From NCBI GenBank assembly GCA_951812585.1, contig OX638318.1:1501058-1565057 (forward strand): a stretch of 64,000 bases of DNA, given 5' to 3'. Origin of the DNA: Rhodothermales bacterium (lineage in GTDB: Bacteria; Bacteroidota; Rhodothermia; Rhodothermales; Bin80). The translations under genes and the position numbers were made by a program. Shown piece by piece: positions 30,772 to 56,176 of this stretch; position 1 is the first letter of the stretch, and each line of letters begins with the position of its first letter. The notes below the pieces were generated by a model, which was not told where the DNA came from, searched no databases, and saw nothing but the letters and a program-made list of their open reading frames with translations.

Positions 30772-31251
30772 TATTGGCGCAGCGCGCCGGGAAAACGGTC
30801 CGTCCGCGCGTGCCATCCGGTTGTACGCTGTAGCAGTACAAACGGAGTCCTGCAGTGCAGTGATGGGAGGAATTGGCACCTGCTTCGACTTTGACAGAGT
30901 GCAGTGCGCACGAAAGGCACCGGCCGAATGCGCTGAGGCCGAATATGCTGGCGCGGCGTGAACGTACGAATCTCCTTGTTTGCAAACAGAGCATTATATG
31001 CTAAAGTGTCGGGCAGTCATAGGCACGGTGGCCCATGGGCCGCGAACGCCAAGAGGCAGATGCGCAAGAGAATCAGCTCGCAGCGAACGACCGCCGTGCG
31101 TTGGGTGTGCGTACTGCCAGGCATCTTGAAGCGATGCGCACCAGGCCGGTCGCTGGCAACGAACCAGAATTCGAACCGCGGGCCGTGTGCCTTGGCGTTG
31201 GCAACCGGGGGCGGTGGCATGCGCGGAAGCTGTGTCCAGGCGATTACAGAG

Positions 31252-31440
31252 TTAACTGAAGCTTACTTCGTCCTGGGCGGCGGGCTTGGCCTTCGGTGCC
31301 TCCGGCCTCCCGCCCTTCAAGAACTGCCGTGTAGCTTCCTGTATCGTTAGCCCGCCGTAGCGCGGATTCGCCGCTGGCGTGTTACCCCACGTGCCCTGCA
31401 AGCGCTTACGCTTGCGCTCCTGCCGGTCGCCTTTTGTCAT
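31252..31440 (-). CDS. small IS-encoded accessory ORF (62 aa), copy A homolog
   Basis: MTKGDRQERKRKRLQGTWGNTPAANPRYGGLTIQEATRQFLKGGRPEAPKAKPAAQDEVSFS. Shares a TP..NPRY.GLTIQ.A.RQ..K core with the 63-aa ORFs of copies B, D and E. Confidence 0.55.
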   Translation of the reverse strand: MTKGDRQERKRKRLQGTWGNTPAANPRYGGLTIQEATRQFLKGGRPEAPKAKPAAQDEVSFS

Positions 31441-31490
31441 TTCAGTGTCCTGTGTCCGTATGGATTGATCTACTGAGTTGGTGCACAACG

Positions 31491-32428
31491 CTACGCTGTC
31501 AGCGTAGCGTACATGAGCCGTTTGCCCACCATACCAGCCACAACGTGCTGCCTTTGCTCCAGCGTATCCATTGTGCGTACGTTGTGCTTGCCCGCAAACT
31601 GGTGCCCGTAGCGGTGCACGTGCTTCTTGCTCCAGTGGTGGTACGTACCATGATACGCCCGCTTGAACATGCTCCAGAATGATTCCAGCCCGTTCGTGTG
31701 CGCCATGCCATTGACCCACCCGCCGACCGAGTGCTTGACGGTTTCGTGCTGCACCCCAGTCATGCCCTTGTAGACGTGCGCCTCATCGGTGTAGACCGTT
31801 GTGCCGAGGTGTTATCGTAAACGAACGGCTGTAAGGTCGCTGCATTCGTGCTCTCCACCACTTCGGCCCGAATCTGCCCGCTTGCACGGTCTTTCAGGCC
31901 GGCCACCGCCGTCTTGACTACCGGGCCGCGTCCGGCTTTCTGCTTCCTGTGCTCGTGCTTGTTTTTCTCCAAGCCACCCCCGTACGTTTCGTCGGCCTCC
32001 ACCGGTCCCTCGAACGCAGCGGCCAGCAGGAGCGCAAAGGCGGCCCGTACGCGCTGCAACATGAACCAGGCCGTAGTCTGCGTCCCATCGAGGTCGCGGT
32101 GGAGCTTCATGCTGGAGACGCCCTTCAGGGAGGTCATTTCAAGATAAATGGCCCATACCCACTTCTTCAACGGCAGCCGGCTACTGGCCAATGCGGTACC
32201 TGTGCGCACCGAGAAGAACCGCTTGCACGGACGGCATCGGTACGGCATTGGCCTGTGTGTGCCCGCATACGTGTCTGTGCCCTTGCAGCGCGGGCACAGA
32301 CGACCGTCCGGCCAAATCACAGCCTCGAGCCACAGGACGGCCGCCTGCTCATTCGGAAACATTTCGGCCAGTTTGGCCATGCTGATTCCCTTGCGATACC
32401 TGCGCCCAGGCCCCGATTTAACCGCCAT
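31491..32428 (-). pseudogene. IS1595-family transposase, frameshifted
   Basis: ORFs 31760..32428 (Zn ribbon CPRCKGTDTY...YRCRPCKRFF; EADETYGGG) and 31491..31763 (HETVKHSVGGWVNGMAHTNGLESFW) are consecutive parts in different frames. The break lies near 31800, apparently a 1-nt loss in ...VYDNTS|GTTVYTDEA... Confidence 0.8.
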
Positions 32429-32800
32429 GAATTCCCCGATCTGGTGTACCCCCTCTATGCGCCGATCGGGAAGAAGTTTTCAGTTAATTATATAACCACC
32501 TCCCGATAAGTACCTCTATGGTCAGCCCGGTCCCTACACCCCACCCCCTACCCAGCACTGCTGCCAGCCGCTTTTGATGTGGAGGATGCGCTTGCACTCT
32601 AGCACCTACCGTTGTCATCCAGGCGTTGTTGGGAAGTCATGCCTCCCATCATCCAGCATACCCGCAACCGGACGGAGTGAGGCACAAGGGGCAGTGACCA
32701 GGTATTGTGAAGGCGCAGATCAAGGAAAAAAATCCTGGAGGTCTTGCGTCGCATAGCAGCGTGACAGTATATTTGACCCGATCATCGTTCACCTTACGAC

Positions 32801-36669: not shown

Positions 36670-36722
36670 AGCAAAATGCAACTTGGAGAATGATACACAC
36701 TGAACTGTACACTACTTGGGGC

Positions 36723-36914
36723 TTAGACGAGCCGAAGCTCGTCGTTTCTTGCCCTCAAATCTGCCGCTTGCTTCGGTTTTGGCCTGGCCTTCTCCAGTTG
36801 CCTTACCGCCTTCTGGATCGTTAGTCCGCGATAGCGCGGATTCGGACTGGGCGTGTTGTCGATCCGCTCAAACTCAGCGTGTAACGCGTCCTTCGTATCG
36901 TTGACCCTTCTCAT
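36723..36914 (-). CDS. small IS-encoded accessory ORF (63 aa)
   Basis: MRRVNDTKDALHAEFERIDNTPSPNPRYRGLTIQKAVRQLEKARPKPKQAADLRARNDELRLV. Its ATG overlaps the transposase TGA (CAATGA). Intact in all copies. Confidence 0.6.
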   Translation of the reverse strand: MRRVNDTKDALHAEFERIDNTPSPNPRYRGLTIQKAVRQLEKARPKPKQAADLRARNDELRLV

Positions 36915-37847
36915 TGCGCAATCAGATCTTTGTACATAAGCCGCCGCCCTGCCCGTGCGGCCACTACGTGCTGCATTTGTTCGAGCGTGTCCATGTCCCG
37001 GACGTTGTGCTTTTGCGCAAACTGGTGCACGTACCGCTGCAAGTGCTTGGCACTCATTTTGTGGTACACGCCATGGTACGCCCGCTTCAGCGTGGCCCAG
37101 AACGACTCCAGCCCGTTCGTGTGAGCCATGCCGTTGACCCATTCGCCCACGCTGTGTTTGACCGTCTCATGCTCCCTACCGATCATGCCCTTGTAAGCGG
37201 TGGCGTCGTCCGTGTAGACCGTTGCGCCGATTTCGGTGGGGTTATACACGAACTGCTTCAACGTCGGGCCGCTTGTGTCCTCAACGACCGTGGCCCGAAT
37301 CTGGCCGGTACCGCGGTCTTTCAGCCCCGCTACCGCCGTCTTGCCAACCGTTCCGCGTCCCGCTTTCAGCTTCTTGTGCGCGTGCTTGTTGGCCTCCTTG
37401 CCCCCAACCATACGTCTCGTCGGCTTCAACCGGGCCTTCAAACGCGGCGGCGGCTAACGGCGCGAACGCCTCCCGAATCCGTTGCAGCATGAACCACGCC
37501 AACTTTTGCGTGATGCCCAGGTCGCGGTGAAGCTTCATGCTGGATACGCCCTTGAGCGCGGTCATTTCAAGATAAATGGCGTAGGTCCACTGGAGCAAGG
37601 GCAACCGTGAGGCTTGCAGCACCGTGCCCGTCCGAACACTGAACCGCTTGCGGCACATGCGGCAACGGTACGGCATGGTCTGTTGTGGGCAAGCATAGGT
37701 ATAGGTGCCCCTGCACTGCGGGCAAAAGCGGCCTTCCGGCCAAAAGATGGCCTCAAACCACTCCCGGGCGGCCTCCTCGCTCGGATACCGCCGTGCCAAC
37801 GCCAAGAGTGTGAGTCCCTTGCGGTGTGATCTGCCTGGCCCTGTCAT
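36911..37847 (-). pseudogene. IS1595-family transposase with a single frameshift
   Basis: ORFs 37281..37847 (Zn ribbon + HTH, ...EADETYG) and 36911..37441 (VGGKEANKH...DDE region...MYKDLIAQ). The expected ETYVGGK is read as GAG ACG TAT GGT TGG GGG, i.e. one extra G at 37408-37409. Confidence 0.85.
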
Positions 37848-38163
37848 GATTCCCCCGATCTGGTTTAGTCCTCATACGGCCCCAATCGAAGAAAAATTAC
37901 AGTTAAGTATATAAACCCCTTTCTGATCTGGCATTGCGCCGCCACAGCAAACGGATGCGTAGCACGTCCGATGCCACGCATTGATCCTTGCGGTGCTCGC
38001 CGCAGGATATGTGCAAGCGCGGTCCTTCATGTAGAGCCAGTAATCTGCGGATAGTTTGGCAAAAGAGGTGCGCATTTGTGTTGCAATACGCCGTGCGCCT
38101 TAGTTTGCTCTTGATTAAGGGCTTCGTGCGCGCGGTGCACAGGGCCAGAATGCCGTTGGCAGT

Positions 38164-51240: not shown

Positions 51241-51775
51241 GCAAATCAGAGGTTAAGGGCCCGTAGATACGCTTCCGGATAAGTATGAGGCAAAAGCTTG
51301 GATTTGGCAATTGGATGGACGCGGAGCAGGGCTTCGGTGCAGCTTGCCAGCCGTTGCGCGTCTACGCAGCCTTCCATGCATTGGGATGTCATTCCCTTTG
51401 CCAGCGACTTGGCAATAGTGCAGTGATGCGCCCCCAAGGGGTGCGTCAAAACGCGACTCAGCATGTCAATCAGCCAACAGCCAACCTCCAAGATGCGCCG
51501 CAGGCCGCTTGTACGCGCCAAAGAGCGAAATGGCCGCGGCTGCCGCGGCGCTGCGGTACGCGATGGGCAAGCAAGAGGTACTTCGGATACAGTACCGACG
51601 GCCGCAGCGCAATCCCGACCAGGTTGTTGTGCCGCTTATGCAGACACCTTCCAGGCAGTGGGTCAGCTGTCGGAATTGTCCAGCAATGTAATGAAATAGA
51701 TTCATCTTGTTATATAAGCAATTCAGTTCATGTTTATTTAGGGGCTTGTATACTTAACTGTACACTGCTTGGGGC

Positions 51776-51967
51776 TTAGACGAGCCGAAGTTCGTCGTTT
51801 CTTGCCCTCGATTCTGCCGCTTGCTTCGGTTTCGGCCTGGCCTTCACCAGTTGCCTTACCGCCTGCTGGATCGTCAATCCGCGATAGCGCGGATTCGGAC
51901 TGGGCGTGGTGTCGATCCGCTCAAACTCAGCGTGTAACGCGTCCTTCGTATCCTTGACCCTTCTCAT
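51776..51967 (-). CDS. small IS-encoded accessory ORF (63 aa)
   Basis: MRRVKDTKDALHAEFERIDTTPSPNPRYRGLTIQQAVRQLVKARPKPKQAAESRARNDELRLV. Intact although the adjacent transposase gene is heavily damaged. Confidence 0.6.
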   Translation of the reverse strand: MRRVKDTKDALHAEFERIDTTPSPNPRYRGLTIQQAVRQLVKARPKPKQAAESRARNDELRLV

Positions 51968-52878
51968 TGCGCAATCAGATCCTTGTACATAAGCCGCCGC
52001 CCTGCCCGTGCGGACACCACGTGCTGCATTTGTTCGAGCGTGTCCATGTCCCGGACGTTGTGCTTTTACGCAAGCTGCTGCACGTACCGTTGCAAGTGCT
52101 TGGCGCTCATTTTGTGGTACACACCAAGGTACGCCCGCTTCAGCGTGGCCCAGAACGACGCCAGCCCGCTTGTGTGGGCCATGCCGTTGACCTATTCGCC
52201 CCCGCTGTGTTTGACCGTCTCACGCTCCATACCGATCATGCCCTTGTAAGCGGTGGCGTCGTCCGTGTAGACCGTTGCGCCGATTTCGGTGGGGTTATAC
52301 ACGAACTGCTTCAACGTCGGGCCGCTTTGTATCCTCAACGACCTTGGCCGAATCTGGCCGGTACCGCCGTCTTGCCAACCGTTCCGCGTCCCGCTTTCAG
52401 CTTCTTGTGCGCGTGCTTGTTGGCCTCCTTGCCTCCAACCATACGTCTCGTCGGCTTCAACCGGGCCTTCAAACGCGGCGGCGGCTAACGGCGCGAACGC
52501 CTCCCGAATCCGTTGCTGCATGAACCACGCCGACTTTTACGTGATGCCCAGGTCGCGGTGAAGCTTCATGCTGGATACGCCCTTGAGCGCGGTCATTTCA
52601 AGATAAATGGCGTAGGTCCACTGGAGCAAGGGCAACCGAGAGGCTTGCAGCACCGTGCCCGTCCGAACACTGAACCGCTTGCGGCACGTGCGGCAACGGT
52701 ACGGCATGGTCTGTTGCGGGCAAGCATAGGTATCGGTGCCCCTGCACTGCGGACAAAAGCGGCCTTCCGGCCAATAGATGGCCTCAAACCATTCCCGGGC
52801 GGCTTCCTCGTTCGGATACCGCCGTGCCAACGCTAAAAGTGTGATTCCCTTGCGGTGTGATCTGCCTGGCCCTGTCAT
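51964..52878 (-). pseudogene. IS1595-family transposase, multiple lesions
   Basis: Same extra G as copy B (52437-52443 context) and the same TGG-to-TAG stop as copy E. Also two CAA-to-TAA stops (after ...DLGIT and ...QQLA) and an internal deletion. Confidence 0.85.
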
Positions 52879-52948
52879 GATTCCCCCGATCTGGTCTAAT
52901 CCTCATACGGCCCAATCGAAGAAAGTTACAGTTAAGTATATAAGCCCC

Positions 52949-53287
52949 TTTTGTATCCCAGTCTATGGCTATACCCATTGCCGAAAACGACGCACCGCGT
53001 ACTGCGGCGTGCTCACGCACGGCAACCTTAGCACTATCAATCACGCCAGGAAGACCGGGATCGTTACACCACCCACAGGCTGCAGAACCGAAGTACACCA
53101 GCACAAGTTCACGTTCCAGCGGCTCCGTGAATGATGGTGTATATCGCGTCGAGTCGTCGTGATACGCATTCGGCCATTCGACCGTGATGGCCGGGAAAGG
53201 CAGGACGCCCGAGGCTGCCAATACAAACGTCGCGGACAACACCATTACGAATGCTGCTCTCCCCCAGCCTTTCCGATGTGCGTCCAC
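52949..53287 (-). pseudogene. thioredoxin-fold protein (CGWC motif), 3'-truncated by IS copy D
   Basis: GTG start, signal/TM segment, and LVLVYFGSAACGWCND. The reading frame runs straight into the IS inverted repeat after ...GIAIDWDTK (113 aa of native sequence). Confidence 0.6.
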
Positions 53288-54465: not shown

Positions 54466-54583
54466 CCTCTATTGCTCCTCTTGCTCAAACCAAGGGATAC
54501 ATGGCCATTGAATACAGCTAGTCACAAGCCCAACATCCCAAATATAGCATTTCGTAAACCGTGGGTAGTCACCGTCTATAAAT

Positions 54584-54605
54584 GGGGCTTATATACTTAA
54601 CTGTA
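54584..54605 (+). repeat. terminal inverted repeat of copy E (GGGGCTTATATACTTAACTGTA)
   Basis: Exact reverse complement of 55793-55814. Confidence 0.9.
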
Positions 54606-54618
54606 CACTGCTTGGAGC

Positions 54619-54810
54619 TTAGACGTGCCGAAGTTCGTCGTTTCTTGCCCTCGAAGCTGCCGCTTGCTTCGGTTTCGGACTGGCCTTCACCAGTTGCCTT
54701 ACCGCCTGCTGGATCGTCAATCCGCGATAGCGCGGATTCGGACTGGGCGTGGTGTCGATCCGCTCAAACTCAGCGTGCAACGCGCCCTTCGTATCCTTGA
54801 CCCTTCTCAT
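54619..54810 (-). CDS. small IS-encoded accessory ORF (63 aa)
   Basis: MRRVKDTKGALHAEFERIDTTPSPNPRYRGLTIQQAVRQLVKASPKPKQAAASRARNDELRHV. Its ATG overlaps the transposase stop. It ends 35 nt from the IS terminus. Confidence 0.6.
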   Translation of the reverse strand: MRRVKDTKGALHAEFERIDTTPSPNPRYRGLTIQQAVRQLVKASPKPKQAAASRARNDELRHV

Positions 54811-55743
54811 TGCGCAATCAGATCCTTGTACATAAGCCGCCGCCCTGCCCGTGCGGACACCACATGCTGCATTTGTTCGAGCGTGTCCATGTCCCGGACG
54901 TTGTGCTTTTGCGCAAACTGGTGCACGTACCGTTGTAAGTGCTTGGCGCTCATTTTGTGGTACACGCCATGGTGCGCCCGCTTCAGCGTGGCCCAGAACG
55001 ACTTCAGCCCGCTTGTGTGGGCCATGCCGTTGACCTATTCGCCCACGCTGTGTTTGACCGTCTCATGCTCCATACCGATCATGCCCTTGTAAGCGGTGGC
55101 GTCGTCCGTGTAGACCGTTGCGCCGATTTCGGTGGGGTTATACACGAACTGCTTCAACGTCGGGCCGCTTGTGTCCTCAACGACCGTGGCCCGAATCTGG
55201 CCGGTACCGCGGTCTTTCAGCCCCGCTACCGCCGTCTTGCCAACCGTTCCGCGTCCCGCTTTCAGCTTCTTGTGCGCGTGCTTGTTGGCCTCCTTGCCCC
55301 CAACCATACGTCTCGTCGGCTTCAACCGGGCCTTCAAACGCGGCGGCGGCTAACGGCGCGAACGCCTCCCGAATCCGTTGCAGCATGAACCACGCCAACT
55401 TTTGCGTGATGCCCAGGTCGCGGTGAAGCTTCATGCTGGATACGCCCTTGAGCGCGGTCATTTCAAGATAAATGGCGTAGGTCCACTGGAGCAAGGGCAA
55501 CCGTGAGGCTTGCAGCACCGTGCCCGTCCGAACACTGAACCGCTTGCGGCACGTGCGGCAACGGTACGGCATGGTCTGTTGCGGGCAAGCATAGGTATCG
55601 GTGCCCCTGCACTGCGGACAAAAGCGGCCTTCCGGCCAAAAGATGGCCTCAAACCACTCCCGGGCGGCCTCCTCGCTCGGATACCGCCGTGCCAACGCCA
55701 AGAGTGTGAGTCCCTTGCGGTGTGATCTGCCTGGCCCTGTCAT
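54807..55743 (-). pseudogene. IS1595-family transposase, frameshift plus premature stop
   Basis: Extra G at the ETY|VGGK site (55302-55308 context), and GAA TAG GTC where copy B has GAA TGG GTC (W to amber) after ...HSVGE. Confidence 0.85.
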
Positions 55744-55792
55744 GATTCCCCCGATCTGGTTTAATCCTCATACGGCCCAATCGAAGAAAAGT

Positions 55793-55814
55793 TACAGTTA
55801 AGTATATAAGCCCC
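55793..55814 (-). repeat. terminal inverted repeat of copy E
   Basis: TACAGTTAAGTATATAAGCCCC, the exact reverse complement of 54584-54605. Confidence 0.9.
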
Positions 55815-56176
55815 TTATTTAATGTATAACACTATCCGCACCCTTATGCTCCACAGCCAAAGGGTCACAAAGGCGCATCATTAGAAGCTGGATGTTCTCT
55901 CCCGGCACCTGGCCTGACAGCGGAACCAACAGCTGAATGTCTGGGGACGTTTTTTCGTCAACCGGAGGCGGAGCTACCTGAGGTTTTCGCCGTGGAAAAG
56001 CGTTCGGTTCTCCTGGTTGGGTTGGGATATACTACGGGCAGGTGAGCACCTTCTGGCCATCATGGTTTCAGTGCTTCAAAGGTTGGTCCAGTGGTCTGCG
56101 CAGTCAGGTCATGATGCAGGACAGGACACCACCTCCCTGCAATCAACTCAGGAATACGGTGCCCAATCGAATGGCC

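Follow-up and report, generated by a model that had tools for sequence, protein, structure and literature searches.

A conserved small open reading frame at the right end of ISNwi1-like IS1595 elements is a candidate transposition accessory gene

In a 64,000-nucleotide stretch of the genome of a Rhodothermales bacterium (contig OX638318.1 of assembly GCA_951812585.1, forward-strand positions 1,501,058 to 1,565,057; hereafter the window, in which all coordinates are given), four insertion sequence (IS) copies of the IS1595 type, designated A, B, D and E, each carry a small open reading frame (ORF) downstream of the transposase gene. Judged from its sequence and from those of its relatives, this ORF is a genuine protein-coding gene under selection, and we assign it to an unnamed family of small proteins, encoded at the right end of IS1595 elements, which is not known to have been described before. 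The explanation that we favour, and consider reasonably probable, is that an ISNwi1-like clade of IS1595 encodes in this ORF an accessory protein which is translated and would modulate transposition, without being essential for it, by acting through the transposase and/or the AT-rich ends of the element. An earlier note on this DNA, written from the sequence alone, had read the ORF of copy A as a conserved accessory ORF of ISXO2-like IS1595 elements; the analysis reported here supports that interpretation and extends it. The features on which the argument rests are the following.

31239-32500, minus strand: IS copy A, 1262 bp, with left inverted repeat (IRL) and right inverted repeat (IRR), no target duplication
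31239-31269, minus strand: IRR of copy A, which reads GGCGATTACAGAGTTAACTGAAGCTTACTTC from its outer end and was compared with the IRR of the related loci L004-L009
31252-31440, minus strand: small accessory ORF of copy A, 62 amino acids, sequence MTKGDRQERKRKRLQGTWGNTPAANPRYGGLTIQEATRQFLKGGRPEAPKAKPAAQDEVSFS, core NTPAANPRYGGLTIQEATRQFLK; matches the family hidden Markov model
31441-31490, minus strand: spacer of copy A from the transposase stop to the ATG of the small ORF, 50 nucleotides, with AGGA 9-12 nucleotides 5' of the ATG
31491-32428, minus strand: transposase of copy A, a pseudogene split into ORFs of 222 and 90 amino acids
32476-32500, minus strand: IRL of copy A, GGTGGTTATATAATTAACTGAAAAC
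36688-37919, minus strand: IS copy B, transposase at 36911-37847, IRR decayed
36723-36914, minus strand: small ORF of copy B, 63 amino acids, intact
51741-52948, minus strand: IS copy D, transposase at 51964-52878
51776-51967, minus strand: small ORF of copy D, 63 amino acids, intact
54584-55814, minus strand: IS copy E, transposase at 54807-55743
54619-54810, minus strand: small ORF of copy E, 63 amino acids, intact

The small ORFs of copies B, D and E have the core TPSPNPRYRGLTIQ(Q/K)AVRQL(V/E)K, to which the core of copy A, when compared with D or E, is identical at 15 of 22 residues and at 45 of 66 nucleotides. The earlier note had claimed that copy A, divergent as it is from the other copies in its transposase and inverted repeats, keeps a 62-residue ORF with this common core downstream of the transposase, and its description held in each particular: the reconstructed transposases of the A and B types are 70% identical, the terminal repeats read GGTGGTTATATAATTAACTG in A versus GGGGCTTATATACTTAACTG in B, D and E, all eight of the synonymous codon differences that it had listed in the core are found between A and D/E (seven between A and B), and the spacing, put at about 50 nucleotides, is exactly 50 in A, as against an ATGA overlap joining the transposase stop to the start of the small ORF in B, D and E. 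At its other end the small ORF of copy A runs into the terminus of the element, its stop and its final five sense codons falling within the IRR. The protein of copy A is present in public gene calls as an unnamed coding sequence. While all four small ORFs of the window are intact, all four transposase genes are pseudogenes; the transposase gene being about five times as long, survival of the small ORF is not significant by itself. An antisense plus-strand ORF of 62-72 amino acids also lies over the small ORF of B, D and E (36716-36904, 51769-51957 and 54582-54800); it was rejected as a gene, having a pseudo ratio of nonsynonymous to synonymous substitution rates (dN/dS) of 0.6-5, no conservation in A and a pattern that is not protein-like.

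The core of the small ORF is constrained as coding sequence. Its 21 nucleotide differences between A and D/E are distributed 9, 2 and 10 over codon positions 1, 2 and 3, and when 21 substitutions were placed at random, 15 or more identical residues were retained in 0.066% of 200,000 trials, the mean being 9.5 (P = 6.6e-4). Compared with the 15 identities in the frame of the ORF, the remaining five reading frames of the core gave 9-11. Across 13 divergent DNA copies, moreover, the invariant residues N, P, Y, G and T are each spelled by two to four synonymous codons, as follows.

Invariant N: AAT, AAC
Invariant P: CCG, CCT, CCC
Invariant Y: TAC, TAT
Invariant G: GGG, GGA, GGC, GGT
Invariant T: ACG, ACC, ACA, ACT

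Such codon variety at invariant residues indicates that it is the peptide, rather than the DNA, that is selected. Two contentions of the earlier note, that the peptide is translated and constrained and that its conservation is not purely that of a nucleotide-level motif, are thereby strengthened, the former by the permutation, by the ORF frame being the best of six and by the choice of codons, the latter by residues that stay constant while third positions vary. The calculation of dN/dS that it had proposed gave a divided answer: within subfamilies the ratio is below 1 (0.29 in A-type and 0.46 in B-type sequences) and the lowest of the six frames, but it separates poorly from several of the other frames, which lie at 0.48-0.79. 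This weak discrimination is probably due to neutral decay of many copies, and we take the within-subfamily ratios as no strong evidence in either direction.

We define the family to which the ORF belongs, here called the NPRY family, by a profile match, the core NPRYxGxT followed by the helix xxE(A/V)xRxL, a length of 45-80 amino acids and a position as the last gene before the IRR. All four ORFs of the window match the NPRY profile, and the position was confirmed in the window and at more than 15 further loci. When a profile of the window ORFs was searched against 1.84 billion representative proteins, 24 clusters of 48-111 amino acids were retrieved at E ≤ 0.001, with the common core NTPSPNPRYxGLT(P/V/I)xEAxRxLLK, and a broader profile gathered 91 clusters at 90% identity (42-114 amino acids), all of them unnamed or 'hypothetical' and none with a Pfam domain. 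Searches of curated families (Pfam, NCBIfam, PHROGs and PADLOC) yielded no significant match to the small protein, a scan of the small-ORF region against Rfam gave no match, and promoter and terminator scans returned nothing relevant. A plasmid collection held no homologue of either this protein or the second small-protein type described below, and transposase relatives from cultured organisms were at most 47% identical. Viral contigs contributed a single borderline match to the small protein, and a metagenome scan for it nine loci, mostly at contig ends. No published description of the small ORF was found in the literature searched, a search that lay outside the primary IS1595 family papers. 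As a separate observation, in a protein of 329 amino acids (P0019) the unit PSKDPKYKGLTNRDAHREWYDE is repeated in tandem four to five times; its likeness to the NPRYxGLT core may reflect either homology or convergence.

The setting of the small ORF was surveyed in 79 related loci, gathered through the transposase from contigs of one genome per species with 1.5-kb flanks and drawn nearly all from metagenome-assembled genomes (MAGs). The loci span seven phyla, represented by Rhodothermales, Alphaproteobacteria, Gemmatimonadota, Binatia, Acidobacteriota, Actinomycetota and Chloroflexota, and from names such as Candidatus Poriferisodalis we infer that many of the source MAGs are sponge symbionts. 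The small ORF lies downstream of the transposase and co-oriented with it in at least 25 of the 79 loci, which is a lower bound because in many of the negative loci the cargo that follows the transposase outruns the 1.5-kb flank; it was upstream in none and on the opposite strand in one. That sole opposite-strand case is a family-like peptide (ATPEEVARRLFRNRLLPRRPAK) directly downstream of the transposase in L020 (2359-2580, minus strand). The survey of downstream ORFs that the earlier note had called for thus came out in its favour across at least seven phyla. Searching in the other direction, from the small protein, an IS1595 transposase was found upstream wherever upstream sequence sufficed, except at right-end remnants: L092-L094 consist of the small ORF and the IRR, and the sequence fetched around them, which covered 4 kb upstream only for L094, contained no IS1595 transposase. 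The remnant L092 is flanked by an ISL3-like transposase fragment and by a 619-residue ORF with DNA-methylase motifs.

In every locus with clear inverted repeats the small ORF is the last gene, ending 0-35 nucleotides before the IRR or inside it. In L004-L009 the 8-bp AT-rich target duplications enclose the whole unit including the small ORF, which therefore lies inside the mobile element. Where cargo genes are present, they sit between the transposase and the small ORF, which is retained alongside them; the examples resolved are these.

L014: SocA/Panacea antitoxin gene and an adjoining, unassigned ORF of 120 amino acids
L065: protein of 209 amino acids
L081: N6_N4 methylase and a protein of 195 amino acids
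L085: methylase-HNH fusion
L084: GmrSD-HNH protein
L100 and L101: three genes of no assigned family, on the opposite strand

The small ORF overlaps the gene before it by ATGA in B, D, E and L002, and by 4-17 nucleotides when that gene is cargo, in L081, L084 and L085, an arrangement which suggests that it is often translationally coupled to its upstream neighbour. Together the small ORF and the IRR thus behave as a fixed right-end module. Downstream cargo is frequent in the clade (L011, L015, L018, L022, L045, L052, L014, L081, L084, L085 and L100/L101), and further cargo types include EcoRI-like and D12 (Dam-like) methylases and P63C and DUF2513 proteins; in MAGs that look sponge-associated or otherwise marine, the clade appears to carry DNA-modification and defence genes from phylum to phylum. 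More distantly, an IS1595 relative from a cultured strain, on a Pseudosulfitobacter plasmid (L097, transposase 35% identical), is followed at 2687-2827 by an unrelated 46-residue ORF (MTDKKTQLDRFKEAARELETDDDEARFNERLRKLAKQKADDKKADD), and among the annotated downstream ORFs translated from a Methylocystis IS1595 relative there was no member of the NPRY family. Other IS1595 branches may have small downstream ORFs of their own.

Evidence on whether elements need the ORF comes from recently multiplied copies. Three elements of one genome (L004, L005 and L006, contig OZ244626.1) are 99.8-99.9% identical and occupy three sites, each with its own 8-bp target duplication (TAATACTT, TTTTATTA and ATAAAAAA); the transposase is intact in each, and all three carry the identical frameshift in the small ORF. 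In the older, diverged copies of the same genome (L007-L009 and L035) the small ORF is intact; L004-L006 are the variant most recently amplified in that genome and lack a working small protein. Conservation of the ORF in other family members, on which the earlier note had made its reading depend, held for many relatives and failed for others: L048 is a 1043-bp element with inverted repeats nearly as in L063/L064 and no small ORF at all, and L038-L042 retain only a relic of it, L040-L042 being three identical copies. Both transposase and small ORF are intact in the recent copies L002 and L003. The small ORF is thus not needed in cis for transposition, and intact copies may complement in trans. 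The pattern fits a dispensable modulator and hints at a negative regulator.

An AlphaFold2 model of the small protein, built from a 46-sequence alignment, consists of a helix at residues 3-20, a conserved loop at 21-32, a second helix at 33-41 and a disordered tail, with a predicted local distance difference test score of 86-90 over residues 1-40. The loop carries the motif NTPxxNPRYxG, the second helix opens with a T-P-x-E cap (TPxEVARxLL), and the tail is variable. No solved structure is similar to the model, and the sequence matches in the PDB are designed repeat proteins that have in common with it a T-P-E-E helix cap. Across the 46 family members the median isoelectric point is about 10 and the mean charge of the core +2.7. 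The conserved functional unit would be a core of some 20 residues, whose character suggests a docking element rather than a general polycation.

A second type of small protein occupies the same right-end position in L036 (2629-2817), L039, L062, L063, L064, L081 (3001-3168) and L085 (3501-3683). Proteins of this AT-hook type are 50-75 amino acids long, follow the pattern xKRPRGRPVKYPMPEPIPDTPENVxRALLxxPPKxxxW-Y with an invariant RGRP core and a W-x-Y motif, and form 23 clusters, all unnamed (proteins P0027-P0049). Alignment of the AT-hook type with the NPRY family by hhalign gave a probability of 75% (P = 2.6e-5) over the 18 columns G/D-TP-E-x-V-A-R-A-L-L-xxxP, and sequences intermediate between the two types occur in L017, L021, L024, L034, L050 and L066. 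A common origin of the two subfamilies is probable on the strength of these comparisons.

Within the window, paired IRL and IRR are present in A, D and E, as they clearly are in more than 20 related loci, and the IRR of B is degenerate (GAATGATACACACTGAACTG). Target duplications were absent from the flanks of A (31229-31238 and 32501-32510), B (36676-36687 and 37920-37931), D (51729-51740 and 52949-52960) and E (54572-54583 and 55815-55826); these flanks are AT-rich, although the genome has 60% G+C. The missing duplications and the decayed IRR of B suggest that the insertions are old or that copies have recombined with one another. By comparison with L007-L009, relatives in which it is intact, the transposase gene of copy A has lost four nucleotides (GAGA, at about 31808). 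Those of B, D and E have in common an extra G after ACGTATG (at about 37409, 52440 and 55305), which is missing from the intact L002 and L003; beyond it, D has acquired a stop codon and a 19-nucleotide deletion and E a stop in the C-terminal part. A programmed frameshift within the transposase was considered and rejected, the lesions being lineage-specific (the G shared by B, D and E, the 4-nucleotide deletion of A and another lesion in L046 and L047). Since genomes carry differing lesions, these are decay events rather than programmed recoding.

Three other explanations have to be weighed against an accessory protein of transposition. The small ORF could be a passenger gene that acts on the host or on other elements, for instance as a small regulator, an anti-defence protein or a host-interaction peptide, with no role in transposition and with the right end serving as a capture site; we regard this as rather unlikely. 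Dispensability in cis, the existence of some active relatives without the ORF and the highly variable charge of its tail would suit a passenger, but the ORF is present in minimal, cargo-free elements of about 1.2 kb across seven phyla, where it is always the last gene, co-oriented and often translationally coupled. Likewise, the clade takes up cargo readily, often genes of defence or DNA modification, and yet new cargo enters upstream of the small ORF and does not replace it. A passenger could account for the remnants L092-L094 with no transposase nearby, including L092 beside its large methylase-motif gene, whereas the protein matches no PADLOC or PHROG family.

The other two explanations seem to us far less probable. 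If the conserved entity were a cis-acting DNA element beside the IRR, such as a set of subterminal transposase-binding sites, the ORF would be an untranslated by-product, which we think very improbable. The region does adjoin or overlap the IRR, the cores of A, B, D and E have AAT CCG CGC TAY in common, and changes within subfamilies lack a strong third-position bias; what speaks against a DNA site is that residues are kept in the 13 divergent copies while third positions are free, that the permutation is specific to one frame, and that the A and B types, unalignable as DNA outside the core, both maintain a start and 62-63 open codons. Nucleotide identity in the core, at about 68%, is not above that of the transposase gene (73-75%), and there is no Rfam match to the region. 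We give no more credence to the reading in which the small ORF is a C-terminal module split off from the transposase, with a programmed frameshift or bypass of the stop codon at the ATGA overlap normally yielding the two as one fused, functional protein. Fused products do occur in public gene calls (P0003 of 90 amino acids, and cluster members of 154 and 162), but those observed stem from copies with indels; the ATGA overlap is found in B, D, E and L002, whereas the 50-nucleotide spacer of copy A and its relatives holds in-frame stops, and elsewhere the transposase and the small ORF lie 0.6-1.5 kb apart, with cargo genes, in part on the opposite strand, in between. The related IS1 family uses programmed frameshifting, but here the transposase frameshifts differ by lineage, as expected of decay, and L048, which has no small ORF, has a full-length transposase.

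Returning to an accessory protein of transposition, we envisage that the small protein would be co-produced with the transposase and would dock on the transposase and/or the AT-rich IS termini (GGnnATTATATA), and that this docking would modulate transposition without being essential for it. Hints of DNA binding come from the high isoelectric point, from the basic core and from the invariant RGRP of the probable sister subfamily. As to the direction of the effect, a negative regulator would be a slightly better fit than an obligatory cofactor, because elements continue to multiply when they have no functional copy. Several observations weigh against this picture. Ten of the 46 members are acidic and the charge of the tail ranges from -7 to +6, and because of this, generic electrostatic DNA binding is not a family-wide property. 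The case for homology of the two subfamilies is a match over 18 columns, and the RGRP AT-hook is absent from the proteins of A, B, D and E and from the whole NPRY subfamily. The small ORF was not seen in 54 of the 79 loci, in many of which cargo extends beyond the flank. Finally, the variable columns within the two subfamilies, counted by codon position, are 2/10/9 and 5/14/16, a distribution that is weakly protein-like.

A bolder version of the same idea, which we put forward tentatively and think possible but doubtful, is that the small ORF encodes a second transposition protein of ISNwi1-like elements, which would bind both the transposase and the AT-rich ends, set the frequency or the choice of target, and form with the IRR an indivisible right-end module. 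If true, this module would explain how defence and methylase cargo is taken up without loss of mobility, and the clade would consist of two-gene, cargo-capturing transposons spread across phyla in apparently sponge-associated and marine communities. A conserved second protein would alter the annotation of IS1595, whose members are treated as minimal one-gene transposons and for which about 110 clusters of the small protein now stand as 'hypothetical' or uncalled, and would mark where derivatives with cargo truly end on the right; regulation of the IS1595 family would become a testable question. The clade appears to carry toxin-antitoxin genes across phyla, along with DNA methylases and nucleases of the HNH and GmrSD kinds, and the module bears on the spread of defence genes in apparently sponge-associated communities.

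Among known proteins, the Pfam family DUF6890 (PF21830) gave a weak match to the AT-hook type, one member of which matched with E = 0.11 and 12.7 bits against a cut-off of 23.6; as one of 15 members matched and no protein of the window did, we do not place the small proteins in this family. The invariant KRPRGRPVK of the sister subfamily resembles an HMGA-type AT-hook (RGRP), and the IS ends, like the target sites, are rich in AT; the proteins of the window and the NPRY subfamily, in contrast, have no RGRP, and the 75% profile match is what links the two subfamilies. As a functional analogue, InsA of IS1, the family closest to IS1595, is plausible: InsA binds the IS ends and represses transposition, and it is likewise small, basic and element-encoded, and is produced from one transcript with the transposase, as the protein described here would be. 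Unlike the protein described here, however, InsA is encoded upstream, has its N-terminus in common with the transposase through a -1 frameshift, and contains a zinc finger and a helix-turn-helix, whereas the small ORF is downstream and separate, with no zinc ligands and no sequence similarity to InsA.

The closest comparison is with the IS1595 family itself. The two transposase fragments of copy A match PF12762 (ISXO2-like DDE; 1.7e-10 and 8.7e-13) and NF033547 of NCBIfam (3.2e-25 and 2.2e-11), residues 25-70 of the N-terminal fragment match the PF12760 zinc ribbon (E = 2.5e-8), and D143, D213, E247 and K254 are invariant between A-type and B-type transposases. With these two domains and inverted repeats, the elements have the hallmarks of IS1595; the 8-bp AT-rich target duplications are clean in the relatives L004-L009 and absent from the four window copies. 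Members of the ISNwi1 subgroup measure about 1.1-1.2 kb, have termini of the pattern ggnnatTAT and carry a DDEK motif, and their cargo derivatives are designated 'ISNwi1+'; cargo-carrying IS1595 members are known more generally. The ends GGTGGTTAT and GGGGCTTAT and the lengths of 1208-1262 bp fit this form, as do E247 and K254, seven residues apart, the DDEK motif, so that, measured against these subgroup features, the elements probably belong to the ISNwi1 subgroup. To our knowledge, cargo-free members of IS1595 encode one transposition protein in a single ORF, from which all four copies and many relatives depart in having a second ORF of 62-63 codons within their inverted repeats. The elements of this clade thus resemble IS1595/ISNwi1 in a PF12760 and PF12762/NF033547 transposase, in inverted repeats starting GGnnATTAT, in a length of about 1.2 kb, in the target duplications of their relatives and in the passenger genes that follow the transposase in some members, and differ in the conserved extra small ORF that here precedes the IRR, following either the transposase or the cargo.
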